A stretch of 58,188 nt of DNA, from contig JBDKTL010000046.1 of assembly GCA_039698055.1 (NCBI GenBank), positions 1 through 58,188 on the forward strand, written 5' to 3'. Numbering within the stretch: the stretch's first letter is position 1; the number at the start of each line of letters is the position of its first letter. The notes under the pieces were generated by a model that searched no databases, was not told the origin of the DNA, and saw only the letters and a program-made list of their open reading frames with translations. Positions 12,692 through 26,280 of this stretch are shown here, piece after piece. The position numbers and the translations under genes are program-made. Origin of the DNA: Methanoregula sp. GTDB taxonomy: Archaea > Halobacteriota > Methanomicrobia > Methanomicrobiales > Methanospirillaceae.

Positions 12692-13079
12692 AATCGGCCT
12701 CGATTCAAGCGATTTTTTTTTGCATGCGGGGAAAATACGGAGAGCTGCCGAAGAGATTTGCCCCACCGGAGCCTGAGATGAATGTACGCTGACTGAATTC
12801 CCGGTAATTGTAATCTCCCATTTAAACGTGATAAAAAAACTGATGAGTGAAAAAAATATTTCACTAAAAATCGCCCCGATTTTTAAAATACGGTCTGGAT
12901 GGGTGCAAAAATAATTTCACTCATCGCCGTATTTATACTGGACTCACGTGAAAATGATATCCTGTGCAGGGATTGAACCGCTGGCGGGTGTCGGTACGGG
13001 AGACGATATCTTACCGGCAGCCGCATAAAAAACCGGAAATTTGGGGTCTGGTAACAGGATCCGGCAGGAACTGTGCAGT

Positions 13080-14111
13080 ATGATCAACGGATATCCTGTC
13101 GATGTTTCCGTGACCGTGAACTTACTCTTGAGTATCGGCATCGTCTTTGTCAGTATATGGGGCTATCATAAGATTGGCAGGGTGACACCGCTGTTTTTCG
13201 GGTTTGCCTATACCTTGTTTGCCATTTCCCATTATCTCATTTTAACCGGAGAGAACAATGCAGCCGGGATCATTTTTTTTATCCTTCGTACGGGGGGTTA
13301 TGCCTTTGTGGTCATCGGTCTCTTTGCCCTCCTGAAAGATATCATATGGCGGCAGGAAGCGGAAATGGAACTGGCCCGGTTTACCAGCCGGCTTGAAAAC
13401 CGCGTTCTTGAACGGACGGCCGATCTTGCACAGGCAAATGAGATGCTCATTGCCGAGGTCTCTCATCGTTCCCTTGCAGATAAAAGCCTCACACAATCCC
13501 TGCATGAGAAAGAGGTACTCATAAAAGAGATCCACCACCGGGTGAAAAACAATCTCCAGATCATCGTAAGCCTCCTGTACCTCCAAGCCCAAAAGACACA
13601 GGACCCTGCCTGTGAAGCTGCCCTTGCCGACAGCCAGACCCGGATACGATCCATGGCGCTCATTCACGAGAACCTGTACCAGTCCGGCGATCTTGCATCT
13701 GTCGATTTTAACCGGTACCTCAGGAACCTGTCCGGCAATCTCATGGTAGCCTATGATACCGGTCGTCACGGCATCCGTGTTACCACTGACGCACCGGATC
13801 TTGTCGTGAATATAACCACTGCGATCCCCCTGGGCCTGATTGCAAATGAACTGATCTCAAATGCCCTCAAGTACGCGTTTTCGGGACGTGATGGCGGAGA
13901 GATCACGCTGACCGGGTACCGGGAAAAAGAACGGATAATGCTGGTTGTCAGGGATAACGGGCGCGGAATCCCGGAAGAGTTTGACTGGCAGCACGCAGAT
14001 TCCCTGGGATTCAGCCTGGTACTGATGCTGGTGCGGCAGCTGAAAGGGACGATCACCCTTGACCGCACAAACGGGACGACCTTTGTTATTATTCTCCCGA
14101 ATCCGGAGTGA
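13080..14111 (+). CDS. Membrane-bound sensor histidine kinase (HisKA_2 type)
   Basis: N-terminal TM helices, EIHHRVKNNLQ H-box, NELISNALKY, DNGRG, SLG. Confidence 0.93.
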   Translation: MINGYPVDVSVTVNLLLSIGIVFVSIWGYHKIGRVTPLFFGFAYTLFAISHYLILTGENNAAGIIFFILRTGGYAFVVIGLFALLKDIIWRQEAEMELARFTSRLENRVLERTADLAQANEMLIAEVSHRSLADKSLTQSLHEKEVLIKEIHHRVKNNLQIIVSLLYLQAQKTQDPACEAALADSQTRIRSMALIHENLYQSGDLASVDFNRYLRNLSGNLMVAYDTGRHGIRVTTDAPDLVVNITTAIPLGLIANELISNALKYAFSGRDGGEITLTGYREKERIMLVVRDNGRGIPEEFDWQHADSLGFSLVLMLVRQLKGTITLDRTNGTTFVIILPNPE

Positions 14112-14112
14112 A

Positions 14113-15054
14113 ATGATGCTTGAAAAACAGCCGTTGATACTTATTGTTGAGGATGAATTGATTGTTGCAGAGAACCTGCGGATTGTCTTAACCGGCATGG
14201 GGTACAATGTTCCTGAACCTGCCGGGAGCAGCGGGGAGGCACTGGCACGGGTATCCGAGATCCATCCGGATCTAATCCTGATGGATATTGTGCTTGAAGG
14301 ATCCCCGATGGATGGGATAGAGACTGCAAAAAAGATGCACCAGTACGGAGATGTCCCGGTGATTTTTGTGACCGCGTATTCCGATGAGAATACCCTTATG
14401 CGGGTGAAGGGCACGGAACCGTATGCCTATATTCTTAAACCGTTTAACGAACGGGAACTGTCTGCTGCCATCGAACTGGCACTCCAGCGATACCACCTCG
14501 ATCGGGAGATTAAAAAACGCGATAATCTCCTGTTTGCCATCAGTTTTGCCATTGAGTGGTTCCTGCGCAGGTGCCGTGCCATTCCCTCGGACGATCCGCG
14601 GTACGAGAAAAATCTTGAAACCGGGATCATGGAAATCCTTGAACATATCGGGTTTGCCGTTCAAGCGGCGGGTGTCTGCATATTCCGCCTGAATCCCGGG
14701 AGCGGGGGGAACTATGGCGCGACCGTTCAGTACCTGTGGGTCGATCCGGGAACTTCGGGATGTGGGAGGATTTCGATTTCGGGCATGGAATCTATCACGT
14801 TTACGACAAGCCTGTGGAGATCGCTTCTTGGGAGTGGTAATACCATTGCCGGGGATGTGAAAAAGTTTCCCGATGGGGAACGCCGGTTCTTTGAGAAATG
14901 CGGGATCAACTCGATTGCCGTTTTCCCCCTTTTTAAAAAGGACACCCTCTGGGGCTTTGTGGGTTTTTACGATACCGGACATCGCGACTGGTCGGACAGC
15001 GAGATGGAGGGTCTCCAAATCGCAGGAAACCTGTTAGGTGCCGTGCTTGAATGA
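14113..15054 (+). CDS. Response regulator receiver + GAF domain protein
   Basis: IVEDE, LMDI, FVTAY, KPF receiver motifs; C-terminal GINSIAVFPL...LWGFVGF GAF pattern. Confidence 0.9.
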   Translation: MMLEKQPLILIVEDELIVAENLRIVLTGMGYNVPEPAGSSGEALARVSEIHPDLILMDIVLEGSPMDGIETAKKMHQYGDVPVIFVTAYSDENTLMRVKGTEPYAYILKPFNERELSAAIELALQRYHLDREIKKRDNLLFAISFAIEWFLRRCRAIPSDDPRYEKNLETGIMEILEHIGFAVQAAGVCIFRLNPGSGGNYGATVQYLWVDPGTSGCGRISISGMESITFTTSLWRSLLGSGNTIAGDVKKFPDGERRFFEKCGINSIAVFPLFKKDTLWGFVGFYDTGHRDWSDSEMEGLQIAGNLLGAVLE

Positions 15055-15120: not shown

Positions 15121-15900
15121 TTAAATCTCCTGCGTGAGAATCTTGTAAAACTTATCGGCCGCGTTGCGCTCGATCCATGGCCGGTGGCCGCATTTCTCCA
15201 GCAGGATAAACCGGAAGTCGGTTAGTTCTTTTGTAAGCGGAACCTTGACCCCGTCAGCCGGATGGGGATCCCAGTCCCCGTGGATTGCAACCACCGGGCA
15301 GGCGATCGATCGCGCCATCATCAGAAGAGACTTCTTGCGCCGTAGTTCAGATGCCTCGTCCCAGACTCCTTTGTATATATCATACTGGCGATGGAATGAC
15401 TCCTCTTCTACTGGTAGTGGATCGAACGCATCAGCATGTGCAAGCAGGTTGCCCAGCTGTGCAAGGATGAGATTTTTATCACCGCCCTGACCGGTTTCAA
15501 CCTGTTCAAGCAGGATTTTGGTCTCGGATTGTTCGGCAGGCGAGAGCCGCCCGAGACGGGTGGTGGTGATAGCGGTAGTATACTGGTCTTCAAACGGTGC
15601 GCTGCTGACAAGGATCAGTTTTTTCACGAGTTCCGGGTACCGTGCAGCAACAATCCAGGAAAGAAAAGCTCCCCACGAGAACCCGACCAGCGTCACGGGC
15701 TGCTGCCCGTATGTCGTGAGCACCAAACGGAGCTCGCGCACCTGCCCTTCCAGCGTTGTCTCGGTCTGGAGCGGTTCAAGAACGCCTTTTACCGTTGAAA
15801 TTTCACGGGCAACGGTTGCCATCTCCCCCGGGGCACCCGGGCCGCCGTGGATGACGGCAACCGAATACGGACTGGGCCCCCATTTCCTCACCGGGCTCAT
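15121..15900 (-). CDS. Alpha/beta-fold hydrolase
   Basis: HGGPG, GFSWG nucleophile elbow, IHGDWD, CGHRPW. Confidence 0.9.
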   Translation of the reverse strand: MSPVRKWGPSPYSVAVIHGGPGAPGEMATVAREISTVKGVLEPLQTETTLEGQVRELRLVLTTYGQQPVTLVGFSWGAFLSWIVAARYPELVKKLILVSSAPFEDQYTTAITTTRLGRLSPAEQSETKILLEQVETGQGGDKNLILAQLGNLLAHADAFDPLPVEEESFHRQYDIYKGVWDEASELRRKKSLLMMARSIACPVVAIHGDWDPHPADGVKVPLTKELTDFRFILLEKCGHRPWIERNAADKFYKILTQEI

Positions 15901-15963: not shown

Positions 15964-16482
15964 TCAGGATTGTTTCCCCGCTCTCTGCATCAGTGCCAGC
16001 AGACCTGCGAGAATTGCGGTGGGTGTTGGCGGGTTGCCGGGAATTTTTATATCAACGGGAAAAAGTTTGTCCGCCCCGCCCAGCACCGCATACGTCCCTT
16101 TGAAGATCCCGCCATCGCAGGCATCGTCCCCAACCGCCACGACAAATTTCGGCGACGGCATGGCATCATAGGTTTTTTGTGCGGCAATGGTCATGTTGTG
16201 CGTCACGGCGCCCGTGACCATCAGCACGTCCGCGTGACGTGGCGAAGCGACAAAACTGATGCCGAACCGCTCCACATCGTAAAATGCGTTGGACAGATTG
16301 TTGATCTCGATCTCGGCGGCGTTGTCGCTGCCGGTATCCAGTTCGCGGATGGCAAGGCTGCGCCCGAACCGGGCATCGATCTCCCGTTTGATTGCCTGCC
16401 CGATATCTTCAATTTCCTCATCGCGAACGGGCGTTGGTTCGGTCATTTTTTTCTTGAACAGGCAGGAAAATGCATTGACCAT
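15964..16482 (-). CDS. NuoB/HyfI/EhrS-like small subunit with the Fe-S cysteines substituted
   Basis: YDVERFG..FVASPRHAD..VTG signature; ligand sites read GSDNAA, VGDDAC, PGNPP. Confidence 0.9.
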   Translation of the reverse strand: MVNAFSCLFKKKMTEPTPVRDEEIEDIGQAIKREIDARFGRSLAIRELDTGSDNAAEIEINNLSNAFYDVERFGISFVASPRHADVLMVTGAVTHNMTIAAQKTYDAMPSPKFVVAVGDDACDGGIFKGTYAVLGGADKLFPVDIKIPGNPPTPTAILAGLLALMQRAGKQS

Positions 16483-16492
16483 TCAGATCACC

Positions 16493-18070
16493 TCACAAAT
16501 CCGTCCCGGCGTATGACAGGTTCAGGCTCTTGTTGATCACCGGGAAATCTGCGATGATATTTCCCGGCGCCGCATGTTCGATTGCCAGCCAGTTCCCAAA
16601 CGATGCGGTCCGGACTTTATACCGGTCGACCACGCCGTTTTTAATGGAGAGCCAGCAGAGATTTTCACCCCGTGCTGATTCGACAAGGGAAAGGGCATAC
16701 CCGTCGTGAACCGGTGCGGAGCTGCGGACATCCCCGCTGGGAATTGCTGCAATCATCTTTTCGATCATGTCCAGTGAGTCCATGATCTCCGCAGCTTTTA
16801 TCGTAAACCGGGCGATCACATCCCCGTCATGCAGGGGTTTCGATTCAGGCCGGAACCGGTCATAGATCCCATACGGGTGGTATACCCGCACATCCACTAT
16901 CCCGCCGGACGCCCGCGCCATCGGTCCGGTGATGTTGAGCGGGCGCAGCAGCTCTTTTTTGATAATGCCGGTTGTCGTGAACCGGTCGATTACCGAAGGT
17001 GTTGAGAGGACAATCTTGAGACCGACCTTGTATTGTTTCCGGAAATCTCTGATGAATCCTGCAAGTTCCTGGAGCGATGAGTTTTCGATATCTTTTGTTA
17101 CCCCGCCAATGCAGATCATGCCACGCATGAACCGGGAACCGGTAAGAGTTGCACCCTCCCGGAATATTTCCTCACGCAGCACCGAGAACTGACTGGCGCC
17201 CAGCGGGAATGCGACATCGGTGAGCATCCCTGCCTGATCGCCAAGATGCGAGCAGACCCGTTCCAGTTCGCACAAAATTGTCCGCAGGTACCATGCCCGG
17301 TCCGGAACAGGAATGCCAGAGGTCCGCTCTGCCGCTATACAGAAATTGGTTGCGTTTGCTACGGACTCATCGCCGCTGATCGCTTCGGCAACCACGACGC
17401 AGTCCGCTGGCAGTTTTCCTTCCGCACATTTCTCGATGCCCCGGTGCGTGTAGAACATGCGGATCTCAAGGCCAAACACCGTTTCCCCGATGACGCTGAA
17501 CCGGAAATGACCCGGTTCGATGATCCCGGCATGCACCGGCCCGACGGCAACCTGGTACACCCCGTCGCCCGTGATTTTACGGAACGGGTATTCTTCTGTC
17601 GGGCTGACCGATTCTTTTACGGCAACCGGGACATTGCGCACCGATTTCTGCAGAGGGTGGAACCCGGCCGGATAGGATTCGTGCAAAAACAGCCTGCGGG
17701 TGTCAAATGCCCCGTCAAACTCCACGCCAAAACCGTCACGGCATTCCCGTTCGAACCATGATGCGGAAGGAAAAACTGACGCAATGGACCGGGCCCGGTC
17801 ATTCACGTTGCGCACAAGGATCAAAATGTTATCCTTCCGGATAAAGACCGAGAGCAGTGAATAGGGCCATTCTTCACTGAACCCTTCGACACAGAACAGC
17901 GCCGCAAGGACGAATTTGTGTGCCGCAAGATACGGGACGGCACAAGCAAATTCCGAATCTGAAACGGTCAGGTAGGATTCATTGTTCGAGCCGATTGCGA
18001 TCCGGGAAGGAGCATCAGCGCCAAACAGTTCAGCAACCACAGTTTTCAGGATATCGGGTGGTTCTGTCAT
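16493..18070 (-). CDS. Ehr large subunit (NuoC+NuoD / HyfG-like) lacking NiFe-binding motifs
   Basis: WFERE..D.FG (NuoC-like), GPVHAGIIEPGHFRF, YTHRGIEK, ESARGE, C-terminal DFPVINKSLNLSYAGTDL. Confidence 0.92.
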   Translation of the reverse strand: MTEPPDILKTVVAELFGADAPSRIAIGSNNESYLTVSDSEFACAVPYLAAHKFVLAALFCVEGFSEEWPYSLLSVFIRKDNILILVRNVNDRARSIASVFPSASWFERECRDGFGVEFDGAFDTRRLFLHESYPAGFHPLQKSVRNVPVAVKESVSPTEEYPFRKITGDGVYQVAVGPVHAGIIEPGHFRFSVIGETVFGLEIRMFYTHRGIEKCAEGKLPADCVVVAEAISGDESVANATNFCIAAERTSGIPVPDRAWYLRTILCELERVCSHLGDQAGMLTDVAFPLGASQFSVLREEIFREGATLTGSRFMRGMICIGGVTKDIENSSLQELAGFIRDFRKQYKVGLKIVLSTPSVIDRFTTTGIIKKELLRPLNITGPMARASGGIVDVRVYHPYGIYDRFRPESKPLHDGDVIARFTIKAAEIMDSLDMIEKMIAAIPSGDVRSSAPVHDGYALSLVESARGENLCWLSIKNGVVDRYKVRTASFGNWLAIEHAAPGNIIADFPVINKSLNLSYAGTDL

Positions 18071-19551
18071 TAAAACCTCAGCTCCGTCACAATCTGGTTA
18101 AGAAATGCAGTTCCCCCTGCCGGGAAAAATATTCCGATGATAAGAATTAGCGCAAGCAGTGCAACAATCGGGAGTTTCATACTCAGGGGCGTTTTATAGG
18201 GGGGTAATTCCTGTTGTTGCCGGGAAGAGGTCTGCTTACCAAATGCCGTGATCACAAAGTACCCGATTGCTGCTGCCGCGATGAAGAGGAGGAAAAGGAC
18301 AAGTGCAAGCACGACAAGCGATTCCGTGCCAAGCGAGAGCAGGATAAAGAATTTTGAATAGAAGACCGGGAAGGGCGGCATGCCGATGATCGCAAGACCG
18401 CCGATAATAATACCCCATGCAGCAAATGGCTGGAACCGGAACACGTCTCGTATGTCATCGATCGCCTCGCCAAACAGGTGGCTCTTGTACTGCCGGTGCA
18501 GGATACCTGCCGACAGGAAGAGGGAGGCTTTGGTGAATGCATGCGCCATCACGTGGAACAATACCCAGAAGAGCGCAAACGGTGTGGCAACGGCAAGTCC
18601 GATAAGGATGATGCCCATATTCTCGATGCTTGAAAATGCGATCAGTTTTTTTAAGTTCTTTTCTGCAAGCATGGAGAAGACTGCTATCGCTATTGTGAAA
18701 ATGCCAAAGAGCCCCAGCATTGCCGCGATGGTCGGGAGTGCTGCGGTCTGGTGCGCGAGGGCATAAACCCTGATGATCCCGTAGATACCGACATTGAGCA
18801 GCACACCGGAAAGAAGGGCGCTGACCGCTGACGGGGCTTTTGCATGCGCCTCGGGGAGCCAGGTATGGAACGGGAAGATGCCGGACTTTGCGGCAAACCC
18901 GATAAAGACCAGCGCACAGGCAGCAGTCATCATGCCGGCGGGAAATGTGGCCGCATGTTCCATGAGCACCGTCCAGTTCAGGGTACCGGTACCAAGCGTT
19001 GACCGTGAGACCTCAAAGAGAAAGATCAGCCCGACAAAGGAGAAGAGCATCGCCGCAGATGCAATGAAGATGTATTTGATCGCCGCATCGATGTTCTCCC
19101 GTGCGGAGAGGATTGCAACAAGCATTGCGGAGATGATCGTGGTCATCTCGGCAAATATCCAGAACAGGGCGAGGTTATCCGAGAAGAATGCAAGGATTAT
19201 CACCAGCTGGAGCAGGCACCATGCGCCGTAGAATAACCTGATGCTTCCTTTCTCCAGTTCCCCGCTCGAGAGCAGGTTCTCGACATATCCGCCGGCATAG
19301 ATGGCAGCGCAGGTAAAAATTATGGTGGTGATAATGACTTCATACAGCCCGAGATGGTCGATGAAGAAAAATCCGCTGCCGACAAGAAATGCATTGACCG
19401 GCACCTGCTGCCAGAGCAGAATCGAGAAGGAAATTCCTGCATAGATCACAGCCTGTGCAATACTGACCATGTTCATCTGCCGGTGCGTGCGGCAAAGCCC
19501 GATGAGGACGAGGGCAAGGATCGCAACAAGCGTAAATGCAACCAGTATCAT
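18070..19551 (-). CDS. hyfF: HyfF-like antiporter-type membrane subunit
   Basis: LFWIFAEMTT, AAIKY, KSGIFPFHTWLPEAH, AFSSIEN, HAFTK, FYSKF. Confidence 0.88.
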   Translation of the reverse strand: MILVAFTLVAILALVLIGLCRTHRQMNMVSIAQAVIYAGISFSILLWQQVPVNAFLVGSGFFFIDHLGLYEVIITTIIFTCAAIYAGGYVENLLSSGELEKGSIRLFYGAWCLLQLVIILAFFSDNLALFWIFAEMTTIISAMLVAILSARENIDAAIKYIFIASAAMLFSFVGLIFLFEVSRSTLGTGTLNWTVLMEHAATFPAGMMTAACALVFIGFAAKSGIFPFHTWLPEAHAKAPSAVSALLSGVLLNVGIYGIIRVYALAHQTAALPTIAAMLGLFGIFTIAIAVFSMLAEKNLKKLIAFSSIENMGIILIGLAVATPFALFWVLFHVMAHAFTKASLFLSAGILHRQYKSHLFGEAIDDIRDVFRFQPFAAWGIIIGGLAIIGMPPFPVFYSKFFILLSLGTESLVVLALVLFLLFIAAAAIGYFVITAFGKQTSSRQQQELPPYKTPLSMKLPIVALLALILIIGIFFPAGGTAFLNQIVTELRF

Positions 19552-20240
19552 GGCAAATCTCCCTTTTCTTCCCAGAGGTAGAACCGGTGGAGCCGGTTAT
19601 GGTATTCCTCAAGCGTCGAATCGATACCCACCGTAAGGATGGTTGTCAGGAGCACGAGGATGATAAGATCGATGACAATCAGAAATTCAATGATGAACGG
19701 CAGTTCCGTAGCAAAAAGCCCAAAGAGCAGGACGCCGTTTTCCATGGAAAGGTAGCCGAGCACCTTTGTCAGGGCTTTTTTGCGGCTGAAGGTAACCATC
19801 ATCCCCATCAGCATGAGGGAAATGCCGATAACCGCACCAAAGAAAAAGAGGTTGCTCCTGACCGGTATCTCCACAAGGATGCGGGACAGTGCGATATAGA
19901 TCACAAGCATCAGGCCAAGCGAGATAAAGAGCGAACTCGTGGGGCTCAGGAAATGGAATTCGATATCCCGTTTGATCCGGATTTTCTCCTGAATAGTCGC
20001 GATAAAGTACGGGATGATGAGCACTTTTGAGATGAACGTGACAAGGGCAATGCCAAACAGTACCGCTGATCCCTCCATCCCGTAGAGTGCAAGCGCGATC
20101 CCCACGAGCGCAAGCGACTGGAGCGCATACACCCGTATAAGGGAGATAAGATTGCGGGTCGTGATGATATACGCGGCGGTGATAATGACAGCGACGAACA
20201 GGATCCTGATCACCGATTCAAGAATGAGTGTGCTGGTCAT
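19548..20240 (-). CDS. hyfE: HyfE-like membrane subunit
   Basis: YALQS, K..IIP, GYLSMENG motifs; position in the operon. Confidence 0.85.
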   Translation of the reverse strand: MTSTLILESVIRILFVAVIITAAYIITTRNLISLIRVYALQSLALVGIALALYGMEGSAVLFGIALVTFISKVLIIPYFIATIQEKIRIKRDIEFHFLSPTSSLFISLGLMLVIYIALSRILVEIPVRSNLFFFGAVIGISLMLMGMMVTFSRKKALTKVLGYLSMENGVLLFGLFATELPFIIEFLIVIDLIILVLLTTILTVGIDSTLEEYHNRLHRFYLWEEKGDLP

Positions 20241-21178
20241 GCAAACACCTCGATGATAATCACGAGCGTGGAAAAGAAAAATGCCATAATGAACAAACCG
20301 GGGAGGCGGAAGAACCGCATCTTTGCCATCGACGATTCAAAGAGCCCGGTAATACCTGCAAGGATGGCACCTTTGACGGCAAAAAGGCAAAATGCGAGTG
20401 CGAGTGCGGCAAGCGAAAGACTGGTGGCAAGTCCCCACGGAATAATGAGGTTGATTATCAGTGCCATAATGAGCGTCTGTTTGATCGCCGCTGACAGTTC
20501 CATGAGCGCGAGGTTCCGGCCGGATTGCTCGAGAAGCATTCCCTCATGGATCATCGTCAGTTCAAGGTGAGTCTCCGGGTTGTCCACCGGCAGCCGGGAC
20601 GTTTCAACGATCAGGATGATAAATAATGAGATCCCGATCAGGATCAGGGTTGGCGATACGGGAGTCCCGGATGCAGAAGAGACCAGCACCATGTCAAAAA
20701 TGTTGAGCGATTTGAAGACAAACGCCAGTGCTGCAAAGACGATAATTGTGGTGGGTTCGATAATTGCCGATATGCTCATCTCGCGGGAACTGCCCATGCC
20801 GCCAAACGAACTACCTGCATCCAGCCCGGCAAGCGCCATGAAAAACCGGGCGAGCACGAGCAGGTACAGGAACAGGATGATATTCCCGATTCCGCCAACC
20901 GGGTCCGTTACGTAGATCAGCGGTACAAAAAGCGACGCCGTGAGGAGCGCCGCGATATTTACGTAGGGCGTCACCCGCATGATCCACGAAGCGTTCCGCG
21001 AATAGATCACTTCCTTGCTGAACAGTTTTGCAATCGTATAGTACGTCTGGAAGACTGAAGGCCCCTGCCTTCCCTGGGTCCACGCCTTCACTTTTTTAAT
21101 CAGGCTGACAAAGAGCGGGGAAATTGCGATTACTGCAAGGGTATTGAGCACGCAGTACAGGACAAAATCCAGTATCAT
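20237..21178 (-). CDS. HyfC/HycD (NuoH-like) membrane subunit
   Basis: QGRQGP...Q.Y..I.KL, FGGMGSSRE, R.PVDNPETHLELTMIHE. Confidence 0.92.
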   Translation of the reverse strand: MILDFVLYCVLNTLAVIAISPLFVSLIKKVKAWTQGRQGPSVFQTYYTIAKLFSKEVIYSRNASWIMRVTPYVNIAALLTASLFVPLIYVTDPVGGIGNIILFLYLLVLARFFMALAGLDAGSSFGGMGSSREMSISAIIEPTTIIVFAALAFVFKSLNIFDMVLVSSASGTPVSPTLILIGISLFIILIVETSRLPVDNPETHLELTMIHEGMLLEQSGRNLALMELSAAIKQTLIMALIINLIIPWGLATSLSLAALALAFCLFAVKGAILAGITGLFESSMAKMRFFRLPGLFIMAFFFSTLVIIIEVFA

Positions 21179-23118
21179 GCACAGACCCCCAGGAACAGGA
21201 TGATCGCGACAACGGTGACAAAGACGTACAGGATGTAGGTGTCCAGGCACCCGTTCTGAACCCGTGCAATGGCAGCGGCGGCGCGGGTGGATGCCCCTGC
21301 GATGGGGAAGTACAGGTATTCTTCAAAGAATTTGATTAACCGGATATCGGCAGTACCCTCTTTGAGGAGGCAGTTGTGGGCATCGTAATATGTCATGTGG
21401 CTGGTCTTTTTTGGCCGGTATATTGCAGAAAAGAACGTGACAACCGGCTCGGAGAACCCGTGCCCGGTATATTCGGTGGATGATGGCAGCGATTTGATGC
21501 CGCATCCCCATGTTTCACCGATCCGGACGTCGCGGGAGGCAGTGAAATAGAGTACCGTGTACGCAAGGGCGCCCATGAACAGGAGCAGGATGCTCACAAG
21601 GAACATATCCGGGATGGGAAGGGTATACCCTGCAAAGGTGAGGATCTGGAATGCGCCAATACCAAGCACGATACATGCTCCGGCAAGGATCGCAGGCCCG
21701 GCAATCATGGCCCGGTTCACTTCTTTTGCCTCAGAACTTTCACGGGAACGGGGCTGTGCAAGGAATATGGAGCCAAACGCCTTGACAAAGCAGGCAGCGG
21801 AGAGTGCGCTTGTCAGGGCAAAGAGCGCAAGGCAGATGAAGAGGAGCACTTTGACGAGCGGGTCAACAACGGCGACCGACTGGAAGAACGCAATAAAGAT
21901 CAGGATCTCGCTTGCAAACCCGTTCAGTGGCGGCAGGGCTGCAATCGATATTGCACCAACAAAAAATAATGCCGAGGTACAGGGCATGCGGTGTGCGAGT
22001 CCACCCATTTTCTCGATGTCCCGTGTATGCGTGGCATGCACGACCGATCCTGCGGTGAGGAAGAGCAGGCTTTTGAAGAGTGCATGATTGAGCGAGTGGA
22101 AGAGTGCGCCAAGCAGGCTGATCGTGGCAAGAAGCGGCAGGCCAAGCGCGACGAAAATGACATACAGCCCGATGCCGACAAAGATGATGCCGATATTCTC
22201 GATGCTTGAGTATGCGAGCATTCCTTTCACATCATGCTCTTTTAATGCGTACATGATGCCGAGAACTGCCGATGCGGTACCGGCAATGAGGATAAGTACT
22301 CCCCATCCAAGATCGAGAGTGAACACTGAAAGAATAAACCGGACAAGGCCGTACACGGCTACTTTCAGCATCACACCGGACATGAGCGCCGAAACCGGGG
22401 ACGGGCTAGCGGGGTGGGCATAGGGCAGCCATTTATGAAACGGGATAATACCGGCTTTGATGGCAAAGCCGATAAAAAGTGAAAGAAATGCAACCGTGAT
22501 GAGGGCCGTGTCTGCCGAATGCACAGCGGCGATAGCAAAAGAACCGGACGCTGCATAAAGTGCAATAAACCCCAGCATCACAAAAAGCGTCGAAAGATGG
22601 GTCATCACAAAATAAAAGATCCCGGCATTTTTTGTATCCGGTCCGGCATACTCATACATGACAAGGAAGAACGAACTGGCGGCCATCAGTTCCCAGAACA
22701 GCAAAAATGAGACCGTGTTTGCCGAGGCAACGACCAGTGCCATTGCCAGCACAAAGAGATTGGTACAGCCGCAGAGCAGGTTGCGCCGTCCCCCGCCGTC
22801 CATGTGTTCGGTGTATCCTGTTGAGTAAAGTGCGACGCACGCAGCAACCACACCAATGATGAGAAGGAAAAATGCCGCGAGCCGGTCAAAGAAAAAACTC
22901 ACCGGAAATGCGCCAAACGGCTGGTATACCGTGAAGGCTGTTGGAATACCGGTGACGAGAATGACAAGGGAGAGCCCGGCAAGGATCGTGGATGCAATGA
23001 TGGTGCAAGCCAGGGAGATGGTGCGGATGAACCGGCGATCCTGCATCGCACCGGCAAATGGCACGAACATCCCGATAAGGTAAATCAGAACCGCGAGAGT
23101 AAACGCCAGCTGGATCAT
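21175..23118 (-). CDS. hyfB: HyfB/HycC-like antiporter-type membrane subunit
   Basis: FWELM, KAGIIPFHKWLPYAHP, MLKVA, AYSSIENIG, NHALFK, PPLNGFASE, TWGCG; SD AGGTGG before the ATG at 23118. Confidence 0.9.
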   Translation of the reverse strand: MIQLAFTLAVLIYLIGMFVPFAGAMQDRRFIRTISLACTIIASTILAGLSLVILVTGIPTAFTVYQPFGAFPVSFFFDRLAAFFLLIIGVVAACVALYSTGYTEHMDGGGRRNLLCGCTNLFVLAMALVVASANTVSFLLFWELMAASSFFLVMYEYAGPDTKNAGIFYFVMTHLSTLFVMLGFIALYAASGSFAIAAVHSADTALITVAFLSLFIGFAIKAGIIPFHKWLPYAHPASPSPVSALMSGVMLKVAVYGLVRFILSVFTLDLGWGVLILIAGTASAVLGIMYALKEHDVKGMLAYSSIENIGIIFVGIGLYVIFVALGLPLLATISLLGALFHSLNHALFKSLLFLTAGSVVHATHTRDIEKMGGLAHRMPCTSALFFVGAISIAALPPLNGFASEILIFIAFFQSVAVVDPLVKVLLFICLALFALTSALSAACFVKAFGSIFLAQPRSRESSEAKEVNRAMIAGPAILAGACIVLGIGAFQILTFAGYTLPIPDMFLVSILLLFMGALAYTVLYFTASRDVRIGETWGCGIKSLPSSTEYTGHGFSEPVVTFFSAIYRPKKTSHMTYYDAHNCLLKEGTADIRLIKFFEEYLYFPIAGASTRAAAAIARVQNGCLDTYILYVFVTVVAIILFLGVCA

Positions 23119-23218
23119 CAGCGCCACCTGATGTTTTGCCGGACCGGGACCCGGCACATTCGCAGCGAACCGTTGCGGTCAGGGACGAGATAGCCTTTGG
23201 GATATCCCGCGGGTGTCT

Positions 23219-23881
23219 TCATTCTGCACCTGCCATTTCCGTGAAGGATCCCATACGGACTGCTGAAGGTTCACGCTTCATGGGGCAGACATCGATTCCC
23301 CTGAGATCGCCAAGACAGAAACTGAACCGGTCCCGGATGGTTTTTGGAAGGTCCGGTTCCGGGATCGGGAAAAACCCCATGCCGCCGTAAAACTCCATCA
23401 GTTCTATCTTGGCATGCATGTAGAGGGTTTCTTCTCTCCCGCATTCTTCGATCAACTGTTCCATGACCGAGCGGGCAAAACCCCGGCGGCGATACTCGTC
23501 AAGGACGTACACCCCGTCAACTTCGAGCCCGTCCGGGTGGCGGGAGCACCGGGCAACACCGACAAGGCGTGTTCCGGCAAATGCGGCAAAAAGCCGGTCG
23601 GTTGCCAGGTCGGCCTTCTGCTGGTGGTAATGCACCCAGAGTTCGTTTTCCGCACGCACCATCTCGTTCGCAGAGAGCTCCCGTACAATGACAGAACCCG
23701 TAACGGGGATCGTGACAGATGTGTTGACCGGGAAAAGAACTCTTTTTTGGATGAGGTTGAACAAATGCGGGCGGAACGTGACAAAACTTCCGCTCTCTTC
23801 ACCCGCAAGCGTATATAATGTAAGGAGTGTAGTATCTTCGCTGAACTGGTCCGGATCAGCGCTAGAGGATATGGCTGGTAT
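23219..23881 (-). CDS. GNAT-family acetyltransferase
   Basis: VYVLDEYRRRGFA acetyl-CoA motif, FYGGMGF. ORF track starts at TTG 23764; the frame is open to an ATA at 23881 behind AGGAGG. Confidence 0.85.
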   Translation of the reverse strand: MPAISSSADPDQFSEDTTLLTLYTLAGEESGSFVTFRPHLFNLIQKRVLFPVNTSVTIPVTGSVIVRELSANEMVRAENELWVHYHQQKADLATDRLFAAFAGTRLVGVARCSRHPDGLEVDGVYVLDEYRRRGFARSVMEQLIEECGREETLYMHAKIELMEFYGGMGFFPIPEPDLPKTIRDRFSFCLGDLRGIDVCPMKREPSAVRMGSFTEMAGAE

Positions 23882-24332: not shown

Positions 24333-24914
24333 ATGATTGACAACCTGCTCTTAGGAAATTACAAATTCAGGGAGACCGATTTCAGCCCGAATATTGACTA
24401 TTACCGCGAACTGGCACACAGCCAGCATCCGTCGGTTCTCTGGATTGGGTGCTCGGACTCACGTTTGCAGACCGGACATATCACGCAGGCCAGAGCGGGG
24501 GAACTTTTTATCCAGCGCAATATCGGCAACATCGTGCCGATCCACGACTGGAACTTTGCAACTGTGCTTGAATACGCGCTTATGCACCTCCATGTAAGCG
24601 ATATCGTAATCTGCGGGCATTCAAACTGCGGGGCGATACGGGCACTGGATAATGAGAGCACGGATTCCTATATCCCCCTCTGGCTGAATAATGCCCGGGA
24701 AGCACAGGTCCGGGTGGATAAAACGATTGCCCCGCCAACGACCGTGCTTGAAAAAGAAGAACGCTACTATCTGATAGAGCAGGAAAATGTCCGGCTCCAG
24801 ATCGAGCACCTGCATACCTACCCGATCCTGAAAAAGGCGGTGGATGATAAAAAAGTCGAGGTTCACGGTCTGTATTATGATCTCGGCACCGGTGCCCTGA
24901 CGCGGGTGACCTGA
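24333..24914 (+). CDS. Beta-class carbonic anhydrase
   Basis: GCSDSR, GELF..RNIGN, CGHSNCGA zinc ligands, HGLYYDL.TG. Confidence 0.95.
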   Translation: MIDNLLLGNYKFRETDFSPNIDYYRELAHSQHPSVLWIGCSDSRLQTGHITQARAGELFIQRNIGNIVPIHDWNFATVLEYALMHLHVSDIVICGHSNCGAIRALDNESTDSYIPLWLNNAREAQVRVDKTIAPPTTVLEKEERYYLIEQENVRLQIEHLHTYPILKKAVDDKKVEVHGLYYDLGTGALTRVT

Positions 24915-25764: not shown

Positions 25765-26280
25765 TCAGATAAACCGTTCGAACCGGTCTTTGGTCACTTT
25801 GCAGATCGGGCAGATGCCGGGTGGTTCCAAGCGTGCACAGAGATATCCGCAGACGGTACAACGCCAGACGGGTAACGGAAATACCGGGCTGGTTGTTGCA
25901 CTGACCGTGTGTATGGCTTTTGTAATGCCCCGCTCTGATCGGGGAGGGCGACGTTCCGGAACCGGCCCGGCCTTTTCGTTTCCGGTTGAAATCGCCGCAT
26001 TGACATAGAGCGCACAGTAGCAGGCATTGAACTCCTCAACATCATCGTCCCGGTACCGGCACGGGCAGATAATGTCGAGGTCCTCTGCTTTTTTCCCTGA
26101 CGCCAGCCGGCAGGGGCATGCCTGGTACCCGTAACGCCGCTCGTTTTTTATCAGGCCCCGGATAAGTGACCGGACAAAATCGGTATCCGGGTTCAGGAAA
26201 TATCCGTGCTCATCGCAATCCGCCTTGAGCGTGCGGTATAACCGGTCGATGTCCGGTTCTGAAACTTCAATAAAACTCAT
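25765..26280 (-). CDS. Ferredoxin:disulfide reductase (FTR catalytic domain + rubredoxin-like domain)
   Basis: CPCR...CPC...CYCALY; C-terminal WRCTVCGY...CPIC. Confidence 0.93.
   Translation of the reverse strand: MSFIEVSEPDIDRLYRTLKADCDEHGYFLNPDTDFVRSLIRGLIKNERRYGYQACPCRLASGKKAEDLDIICPCRYRDDDVEEFNACYCALYVNAAISTGNEKAGPVPERRPPRSERGITKAIHTVSATTSPVFPLPVWRCTVCGYLCARLEPPGICPICKVTKDRFERFI

Follow-up and report, generated by a model that had tools for sequence, protein, structure and literature searches.

An Ehr-type complex of Methanoregula without the cysteine ligands of [4Fe-4S] and [NiFe] centers: a candidate for ion translocation without redox chemistry

The window analyzed here is the complete 58,188-nucleotide (nt) stretch of contig JBDKTL010000046.1 from Methanoregula sp. 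(assembly GCA_039698055.1). Between positions 15964 and 23157, it contains on its minus strand six tightly packed and intact open reading frames (ORFs), which form an operon of the ehrABCDLS type. The first gene, ehrA (21175 to 23157, minus strand as for all genes of the operon), codes for an antiporter-type membrane subunit similar to HyfB, HycC, NuoL, and MrpA (PF00361, E value of 9.5e-58; NF006418, 924.8 bits at a cut-off of 794). The product of its longest ORF comprises 660 amino acid residues (aa), and the true start may be located a few codons downstream. The NuoH/HycD-like membrane subunit encoded by ehrB (20237 to 21250; PF00146, E = 1.5e-34) has 337 aa in the longest ORF but probably starts internally, as judged from an alignment to HycD that begins at residue 30. 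A small HyfE-like membrane subunit of 230 aa is the product of ehrC (19548 to 20240); it had no Pfam match and was found by NF008556, the model for a hydrogenase 4 membrane subunit, with an E value of 2e-19 and a score below the cut-off. The gene ehrD (18070 to 19551) encodes another antiporter-type membrane subunit of the HyfF/NuoN/MrpD type with 493 aa (PF00361, E = 4.2e-48; NF006427, 670.6 bits at a cut-off of 511), and ehrL (16493 to 18070) encodes the large subunit, a NuoC-NuoD fusion of 525 aa similar to HycE but without the [NiFe] ligands (PF00346, E = 4.5e-38; PF00329, E = 3e-15). The last gene, ehrS (15964 to 16482), starts with an ATG 10 nt past the stop codon of ehrL, with a GGTGA-type ribosome site ahead of it, and encodes the NuoB/HycG-like small subunit of 172 aa (PF01058, E = 8e-26), in which the ligands of the [4Fe-4S] cluster are missing. 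None of the six genes encodes a ferredoxin-like subunit (HycF/NuoI) or a flavoprotein.

The designation ehrABCDLS is that given by Gunsalus et al. to Mhun_1817-1822 of Methanospirillum hungatei (PMC4704411). A hydrogenase-like operon with a large subunit lacking the Cys ligands of the NiFe center was described by Anderson et al. for M. hungatei, Methanosarcina acetivorans, and M. mazei (PMC2686161), and GSU0739-45 of Geobacter sulfurreducens encode an Ehr complex (PMC7894505). The operon in the window agrees with Ehr in the set and order of the six subunits, in the NiFe-less large subunit, and in the absence of a ferredoxin-like subunit, so that it can be assigned to this group; the Ehr loci of Methanosarcina fall inside the same clade as the complex of the window.

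EhrS was assigned to its family by PF01058 with 90.7 bits at a cut-off of 27 and by NF005012 with 125.5 bits at a cut-off of 116. The four Cys residues that ligate the cluster in members of PF01058 are all absent. In an alignment to the solved HycG of Escherichia coli (7z0s_G, E = 5e-31) and to human NDUFS7, the four ligand columns were occupied by D53, A56, D120, and N150. D53 takes the place of a Cys in HycG, A56 and D120 that of Cys residues in both HycG and NDUFS7, and N150 that of the Cys in the PGCPP motif, which has become PGNPP; the tandem Cys pair of complex I aligned with A55 and A56. The first and second columns are located in GSDNAA (residues 51 to 56; 16315 to 16332, minus strand) and the third in VGDDACD (residues 117 to 123; 16114 to 16134, minus strand), where C122, two residues past the lost third ligand, has been kept. 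The fourth column is part of the stretch K146-I-P-G-N150-P-P (16027 to 16047, minus strand), which also contains a clade-specific Lys, K146. A preliminary description of this DNA had proposed a NuoB scaffold with all four ligands replaced in an otherwise intact ORF, and the family match and both alignments bear this out. The positions it had assigned to the motifs were correct (16315 to 16332 for residues 51 to 56, 16117 to 16134 for residues 117 to 122, and 16027 to 16041 for residues 148 to 152), and so were the codons GAC, GCC, GAT, and AAC, each of them two changes away from TGY; the ORF is indeed intact, with 172 aa, an ATG start codon, and a ribosome site.

To evaluate the replacements in related loci, one genome per species was scanned, which yielded 148 stretches encoding a relative; 80 of these with 62 to 92% identity were kept, so that the EhrS alignment contained 81 sequences including that of the window. 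The respective numbers were 71 for EhrL, 62 for EhrA, 68 for EhrB, and 71 each for EhrC and EhrD. The sequences came from Methanoregula and other Methanomicrobiales, from many Methanosarcina, among them cultured strains, and from Dehalococcoidia, Altiarchaeota, Bathyarchaeia, and some bins labeled as DPANN. A Cys in any of the four ligand columns was found in 0 of the 81 EhrS proteins. G51, S52, D53, N54, G118, D119, D120, A121, and C122 were each present in all 81 of them, D123 and N150 in 79 each, and K146 in 78. Only position 56, the second ligand column, varied between Thr (47 sequences), Ala (28), Pro (5), and Val (1). The nearest database homologs of EhrS bear the name Methanoregula sp., and the best 120 matches, query included, from a collection of 5.8 billion proteins (78 to 100% identity) contained no Cys in the three motifs; a pattern search in these sequences found GSDN in 117 of 120, G-x-x-AC in 119 of 120, PGNPP in 113, PGTPP in 1, and no match to the last motif in 6. 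Of 14 loci retrieved from further genera of the order, 12 were readable by the pattern (all but L088 and L096; L089 in the third motif only), and in these 12, the motifs that were picked up were likewise Cys-less. In five loci from other genera (L084 to L086, L092, and L093), a Cys is present at position 50, the column of an extra first Cys in HycG, while the four ligand Cys residues are lost as well, and in L093, Val replaces C122. The complete gene order A-B-C-D-L-S was found in 69 of the 80 loci, and the end of a contig interrupts the operon in 10 of the remaining 11.

The closest relatives outside this group were represented by the 150 best representatives of clusters with 50% identity, of which 133 with at least 150 aa were kept. 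Cys residues occupied all four columns in 86 of them and none of the columns in 17, and the rest were partial or truncated. The 86 all-Cys sequences may belong to Ehr complexes or to true hydrogenases. With 86 of the 133 nearest representatives being all-Cys, compared with 0 of 81 having any ligand Cys in the clade, chance can be excluded. The D-x-D-N clade received a support of 100 in a FastTree analysis (81 of 212 rows) and of 97 in a Shimodaira-Hasegawa-like approximate likelihood ratio test in a quick IQ-TREE run (21 of 80 rows); it is well supported and horizontally spread. It is nested in a wider Cys-less set of 28 rows with a support of 95, the other members of which read N/S-E-G-D/N in the ligand columns. 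A second Cys-less clade with six representatives (P0178, P0182, P0248, P0253, P0260, and P0267; support 97) was placed elsewhere among the all-Cys sequences and shows the pattern D-x-D/A-D/S, with Asp at ligand columns 1 and 3, which suggests a convergent replacement of Cys by Asp. The tree requires five state changes, and at least three of them are forced by starred branches; therefore, this section of the family has lost the cluster more than once, with Asp as the replacement on at least two occasions.

All six genes of the operon are under purifying selection, ehrS most strongly. The ratio of nonsynonymous to synonymous substitution rates (dN/dS), calculated pairwise by NG86 for pairs with 0.05 < dS < 1.5 (281 to 528 pairs per gene), had medians of 0.148 for ehrA, 0.135 for ehrB, 0.136 for ehrC, 0.141 for ehrD, 0.160 for ehrL, and 0.095 for ehrS; invariant columns accounted for 27% of EhrS, the largest share, and for 4 to 18% of the other five proteins. 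The operon was also present without indels in two DNA sequencing runs from other studies, X3 (0.87 of the sampled words of the operon) and X4 (0.54). Both follow-up steps that the preliminary description had outlined for this question, the collection of homologs with GSDN and PGNPP and the determination of dN/dS across the operon, gave clear results: a conserved clade of the window plus 80 loci without any ligand Cys, and purifying selection on all six genes between 0.095 and 0.160. Its conclusion that selection rather than decay or sequencing error caused the replacements is well supported by these values, by the invariant replacements across distant taxa, by the runs without indels, and by a canonical paralog in the same genome. 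This paralog is part of an Ech-type hydrogenase (contig C7:109127-113261, L081), the small and large subunits of which keep all Cys residues for the cluster and the NiFe center. The genome is 93% complete and contains three PF01058 and two PF00346 loci, with Ech and Ehr as the only complex-I-type loci; an Eha- or Mbh-type small subunit was not detected in it. A small subunit of the Frh type is encoded on contig C24 (L082).

The large subunit has lost its metal ligands, too. Aligned to HycE (7z0s_E, E = 6.5e-63) and also to MbhL, the four Cys columns of the [NiFe] site correspond to S232, E235, S519, and G522 of EhrL, and each of these residues was found in 71 of 71 sequences. The N-terminal CGxC motif is replaced by S232-G-D-E235 (codons at 17366 to 17377, minus strand), with G233 and D234 being as invariant as S232 and E235. 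The C-terminal DPCxxC motif is replaced within N513 to L525, the C-terminal NKSLNLSYAGTDL (codons at 16496 to 16534, minus strand), in which N513, K514, S515, N517, S519, Y520, G522, and D524 were each present in 71 of 71 sequences. In an alignment with NuoCD of Aquifex, the Tyr of the DRxDY motif fell onto G233 of EhrL. This Tyr of NuoD is a quinone ligand in complex I.

Across all six subunits, no conserved Cys motif or Cys cluster was found, and of all Cys residues in the proteins encoded by the window, only C122 of EhrS and C495 and C552 of EhrA are invariant in the clade. By sequence, the complex has no place for a NiFe center or a Cys-ligated Fe-S cluster. The attribute "apparently cofactor-free" in the preliminary description has gained strength from the loss of all four NiFe ligands in EhrL and from this short list of three invariant Cys residues; it is based on the absence of ligands. 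C495 and C552, both in the C-terminal part of EhrA, are invariant in 62 of 62 sequences, and C552 belongs to a W-G-C-G motif that aligns with HycC as well.

A model of EhrS was predicted by AlphaFold2 from an alignment with 25 rows. It reached a predicted local distance difference test (pLDDT) value of 82.2, with low confidence at the N terminus and in the loop of residues 54 to 58. In a comparison with the PDB, 81 chains matched at E ≤ 0.001; 50 of these were listed, each of them from an entry of complex I, NDH-1, formate hydrogenlyase (FHL), or Mbh. The closest fold was that of MbhJ (6cfw_J), with template modeling scores of 0.74 and 0.88 and a root mean square deviation of 2.0 Å over 136 columns; with its matches to chains of NuoB, PSST, HycG, and MbhJ, the model has the flavodoxin-like fold of the family. 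At the sequence level, EhrS matched 43 distinct PDB sequences with E ≤ 1e-5, from complex I, NDH-1, FHL, Mbh, and MBS, all of which we take to be cluster-bearing complexes.

Modeling of the dimer of small and large subunit, a further step envisaged in the preliminary description, resulted in a score of 0.95 (0.94, 0.95, and 0.95 in the individual runs) compared with 0.00 for the best of three controls; of 80 solved complexes, 58 attained the mark for a predicted complex, compared with 2 of 110 mismatched pairs. The agreement of contacts between the runs was at least 85%, and the pLDDT of the partners was at least 84. The predicted interface includes residues 47 to 55, 120, and 150 to 151 of EhrS and residues 230 to 234, 519 to 522, and 524 of EhrL, with S232 of EhrL and D53 of EhrS among the best-defined pairs. 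It holds the former ligand positions of both subunits; thus, one polar, carboxylate-rich site is predicted. Because homologous complexes have been solved, the score indicates likeness rather than proof of binding and may reflect memory of these structures. Together with the adjacent genes 10 nt apart, the prediction nevertheless supports a heterodimer of EhrS with a NuoD-type partner.

The membrane arm appears to be functional, with its ion-path residues intact. EhrA matched HycC (7z0s_C, E = 1.7e-66), MbhH, and MrpA (E = 2.2e-45 and 2.7e-41; PDB 6z16 and 7qru), and in EhrA, E156, K234, H241, K242, K265, H354, H358, K362, and E417 were invariant in 62 of 62 sequences. In EhrB, which matched HycD (7z0s_D, E = 1.8e-42) and is homologous to MbhM, the same was true for E165, E216, D223, E230, E236, and E241 (68 of 68), in EhrC for E167, E185, and D191 (71 of 71), and in EhrD for E135, H337, and K341 (71 of 71), with K222 being present in 70 of 71. 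The conserved residues of EhrA and EhrD are presumably the Glu of transmembrane helix 5, the Lys of transmembrane helix 7, and the central His/Lys chain of NuoL/M/N-type helices. Because the Glu/Lys/His chain of EhrA and EhrD and the acidic residues of EhrB are intact, ion translocation should still be a function of the complex.

The FHL/hydrogenase-4 type of E. coli (HycG, HycE, HycC, and HycD; 7z0s) provided the best solved sequence matches to EhrS, EhrL, EhrA, and EhrB and has the same NuoC-NuoD fusion, but the NiFe site, the proximal cluster, the ferredoxin-like HycF, HycB, and the formate dehydrogenase of FHL have no counterpart in the window's complex. Mbh of Pyrococcus furiosus (6cfw) contributes with MbhJ the closest fold to EhrS and with MbhH and MbhM homologs of EhrA and EhrB; it contains a NiFe center, three [4Fe-4S] clusters, and an Mrp-type sodium module (MbhA-C, F, and G), which are all absent here. 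Group 4 [NiFe]-hydrogenases are characterized by the L1 and L2 Cys motifs and the proximal cluster; the Ech of the same genome has both and the Ehr complex neither. NuoB/PSST/Nqo6 of complex I share the Pfam and NCBIfam family and the fold with EhrS, but the ligands of the N2 cluster and the quinone-site Tyr are missing, nothing indicates a quinone as substrate, and counterparts of NuoA, NuoI, NuoJ, NuoK, NuoE, NuoF, and NuoG are absent from the operon and its neighbors. The nearest known analogs for the mode of action proposed below are the Mrp antiporters (6z16 and 7qru), redox-independent exchangers assembled from the same antiporter-type subunits. They are without a NuoB-, NuoD-, and NuoH-like module and require MrpB, C, E, F, and G, none of which is encoded within the operon, and MnhG (PF03334), the only Mrp subunit searched for genome-wide, had no match in the 93%-complete genome. 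Therefore, the likeness to Mrp is a functional analogy at most and not a membership.

Ehr complexes in the literature have been treated as enzymes without NiFe ligands and without a demonstrated function, or as ferredoxin- or formate-linked redox systems (FDH-Ehr, with formate dehydrogenase), in the accessible parts of PMC2686161, PMC4704411, PMC6349859, PMC7894505, PMC10284858, PMC4378227, and PMC7304191. These texts mention the missing NiFe ligands but, in the parts covered, neither the loss of the Fe-S ligands of EhrS nor their invariant replacement. The papers on redox coupling presuppose that the small subunit can carry an Fe-S cluster; the window encodes no such subunit, and this feature may not define the family. 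In the open literature, with the founding Ehr papers and supplements outside the coverage, no mention of a cluster-less Ehr small subunit was found, so that a prior description is possible; the accessible text of 10.1101/2021.08.23.457424, PMC5037454, and PMC4758237 does not mention one either. Ehr complexes and this type of operon have thus been described already, and what appears to be new, judged from these sources, is the Cys-less small subunit with invariant replacements.

How can such a complex function? It is probably a transporter of ions across the membrane that operates without redox chemistry. There is about an even chance that the D-x-D-N group is a redox-cofactor-free Ehr clade, neither hydrogenase nor oxidoreductase, that still translocates ions and in which the junction between the soluble module and the membrane arm responds to protonation or to cation binding at the Asp/Glu cluster. 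Its role would most likely be that of a gradient-driven cation/proton exchanger or of a converter of the proton motive force. The module of EhrS and EhrL would stay docked on the membrane arm, and the former metal pockets would be fused into one site composed of D53, N54, D119, D120, D123, K146, and N150 of EhrS and S232, D234, E235, N513, K514, S519, and D524 of EhrL. In complex I and membrane-bound hydrogenases, the NuoH-type channel is gated by a charge change that is driven by redox chemistry, and protonation or cation binding at this fused site may take over that role. A related proposal can be made only tentatively, with a chance well short of even: the complex may be a natural, widely distributed member of the superfamily of complex I and membrane-bound hydrogenases without any redox cofactor, with the fused former N2 and NiFe pockets serving as a carboxylate-based coupling site that binds cations or protons, or a new metal, and with charge binding or a non-redox reaction instead of electron transfer driving the conserved machinery of the NuoB/NuoD/NuoH module and the antiporter subunits.

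The occurrence of MnhG-type genes gives a hint, and not more than that, that Ehr could replace Mrp. In the genus of the window, a match to the MnhG family was found in 9 of 10 Ehr-negative genomes (4 of them at E ≤ 1e-20) versus 16 of 39 Ehr-positive genomes including that of the window (1 at E ≤ 1e-20). It stays a hint because related genomes are not independent and because PF03334 also marks Mbh-type hydrogenases.

Several points weigh against translocation by a cofactor-free complex in the form outlined above. A pump without cofactors leaves its energy source to be explained, and an antiporter role is not specifically indicated, with subunits of the MrpE/F/G type being absent; moreover, seven genomes of another genus in the same family carry Ehr together with an MnhG-type gene. 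Genome papers regard operons of this type as coding for an enzyme that likely reduces ferredoxin (PMC4704411), and a redox partner encoded elsewhere is possible. Not all residues of the putative site are innovations either. Among the 86 all-Cys relatives, D119 was found in 29, D123 in 22, and C122 in 32, and position 146 was Tyr in 34, Phe in 12, and His in 10. The residues D119, D123, and C122 therefore appear to pre-date the loss of the ligands, and only D53, D120, N150, and K146 seem to be truly new; these four could be a mere salt-bridge plug that stabilizes the fold. Homology and a list of predicted contacts are the basis for the geometry of the site. Evidence for transcription comes from metatranscriptome contigs with at least 99% identity on the genes ehrA, ehrB, ehrC, ehrD, and ehrL, 8 pieces from X9 and 6 from X10, with one piece spanning the stop of ehrL and the start of ehrS (16442 to 16674); these are only 14 short contigs from two libraries of the probable source study, from which strand and level cannot be read and which may include DNA carry-over, and the parts of the operon not covered by them carry no meaning. 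Finally, the system can decay or be lost, as indicated by a remnant in locus L079:6373-8522 on a scaffold of a metagenome-assembled genome of Dehalococcoidia. In this locus, EhrS is intact with the same motifs, EhrL is split into two ORFs of 413 and 115 aa, and unrelated genes (TetR, an oxidoreductase of the FAD type, and a hydrolase) replace the four membrane genes, due to decay or mis-assembly.

The alternative that survives best, although unlikely, assumes that the remodeled pocket has acquired a new catalytic or metal-binding function, with a mononuclear or binuclear metal other than Fe-S bound by Asp, Asn, C122, and E235 or with a substrate site, and that a non-redox reaction there is coupled to ion translocation. 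Vectorial CO2 hydration by the CupA/CupB modules of cyanobacterial NDH-1 and by DAB complexes is an example of such a coupling. The residues that line both former sites are invariant, with four carboxylates in EhrS, D234 and E235 in EhrL, and one Cys, and the model brings the two former metal sites into contact. Some 1.2 kb upstream of ehrA and in divergent orientation, the window contains a gene for a beta-class carbonic anhydrase (24333 to 24914, plus strand; PF00484, E = 1.5e-47), which is present at the same place, at the edge of the locus, in 10 loci of the Methanoregula group, so that vectorial CO2 hydration is worth a test; the host taxa are mostly CO2-using anaerobes according to record titles and general knowledge. 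This linkage is, however, confined to the Methanoregula-group loci, with no carbonic anhydrase gene within 8 kb of the operon in Methanosarcina, Dehalococcoidia, or other loci. EhrS also lacks a His-rich or Cys-His zinc motif, its sole invariant His, H83, being likewise present in 80 of the 86 canonical relatives, and K146 may neutralize the carboxylates without a metal. With this clade-specific Lys, a filling of the former cluster cavity by salt bridges seems as plausible as a new metal site.

Such a filling leads to the next alternative, which is rather improbable: the module of EhrS and EhrL may be an inert structural relic required for the assembly of the membrane arm, or a regulatory cap, with Asp, Asn, and Lys filling the cavity and the membrane arm being a passive or regulated channel. 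The co-occurrence of K146 with D53 and D120 in this clade only would fit a charge-compensated plug, the predicted interface of both subunits has been kept, and the loop of residues 54 to 58 has a low confidence in the monomer model. Yet none of the other five proteins is under as much constraint as EhrS (dN/dS of 0.095, 27% invariant columns), the former NiFe pocket of EhrL is invariant as well, which exceeds the conservation that is normal for a filler, and the second Cys-less clade gained Asp independently at the same two columns.

A redox activity retained by the complex, either through a [4Fe-4S] or other Fe-S cluster on non-Cys ligands (Asp, Asn, and C122) or through electrons delivered from a partner encoded elsewhere, is very improbable. 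Single Asp ligands to [4Fe-4S] clusters occur in other proteins, and C122 is invariant; this residue is not new, however, because a Cys is present there in 32 of the 86 all-Cys relatives. Redox roles linked to ferredoxin or formate have been proposed for Ehr (PMC4704411 and PMC6349859). The single Cys near the site, the variable second ligand column (Ala, Thr, Pro, or Val), the large subunit without NiFe ligands and with a Gly in the column of the complex-I quinone Tyr, the absence of a ferredoxin-like subunit from the operon and its conserved neighbors, and the lack of a conserved Cys motif in any subunit argue against this explanation. A decaying pseudogene or an error of sequencing or assembly, for which the degenerate appearance of L079 could be cited, has a negligible probability: pseudogene and relaxed selection were rejected by six intact ORFs under purifying selection (dN/dS of 0.095 to 0.160) and the invariance of the replacement residues in 81 sequences, and an error by codons two changes away from Cys, the independent runs X3 and X4 without indels, and more than 190 homologs with the same residues.

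It is debated how a charge change at the junction of NuoB, NuoD, and NuoH drives ion pumping about 200 Å away in complex I and its hydrogenase relatives. If translocation without cofactors by the Ehr clade is true, a conserved relative that has the whole scaffold for coupling and pumping but lacks cofactors for electron transfer would allow the conformational and electrostatic parts of the mechanism to be viewed apart from redox chemistry. It would be a minimal redox-free model of the coupling in complex I, from the charge change at N2 and the quinone site to ion translocation. The operon occurs in genetically tractable Methanosarcina, so this can be tested. Moreover, the names NuoB, "Ni,Fe-hydrogenase III small subunit," and "hydrogenase membrane subunit" do not fit these proteins by their sequences and should be corrected. 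The models NF006418 and NF006427 (equivalogs, "hydrogenase membrane subunit") and NF005012 (subfamily, "NuoB") score above their cut-offs with proteins of the operon, and pipelines therefore give the name of a hydrogenase or NADH-quinone oxidoreductase to a complex in which both NiFe and Fe-S ligands are absent. Genome papers count the operon among the ferredoxin-reducing hydrogenases in models of the energy metabolism of methanogens, which is contradicted by the sequence.

An EhrS-type gene at E ≤ 1e-40 was found in 66 of 301 sampled genomes of the order, including that of the window, and in 12 of 43 genera. Of 48 other genomes sampled from the genus of the window, which consists of methanogens of peat, groundwater, and wastewater, 38 carry the operon; it is therefore likely relevant to their ion economy.

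An all-against-all clustering of the flanking ORFs of the 80 loci revealed no partner gene that is common across taxa. The large flanking clusters that remained were either confined to one group of taxa or composed of ORFs on the opposite strand within the span of the operon, and the latter were read as shadow frames of the operon genes. Between the ehr operon and the carbonic anhydrase gene, the window contains a gene for a GNAT acetyltransferase (23219 to 23764, minus strand). A GNAT gene recurs in 23 loci, which belong to the Methanoregula group plus two further Methanomicrobiales loci, and was absent from the surroundings of the operon in the loci of Methanosarcina and of bacteria. On the other side, ehrS is followed by a gene for an alpha/beta hydrolase (15121 to 15900, minus strand), which is syntenic in 17 loci, all within the Methanoregula-group range L001-L032. 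Downstream of it adjoin, at 13041 to 15054 on the plus strand, a gene for a HisKA_2-type histidine kinase and, overlapping with its end, one for a response regulator with a GAF output domain. A fusion protein of 171 aa is encoded at 25765 to 26280 on the minus strand; it is composed of the catalytic chain of a ferredoxin-thioredoxin reductase (PF02943, E = 3.1e-22) and a C-terminal rubredoxin-like domain (PF21349, E = 2.3e-13).

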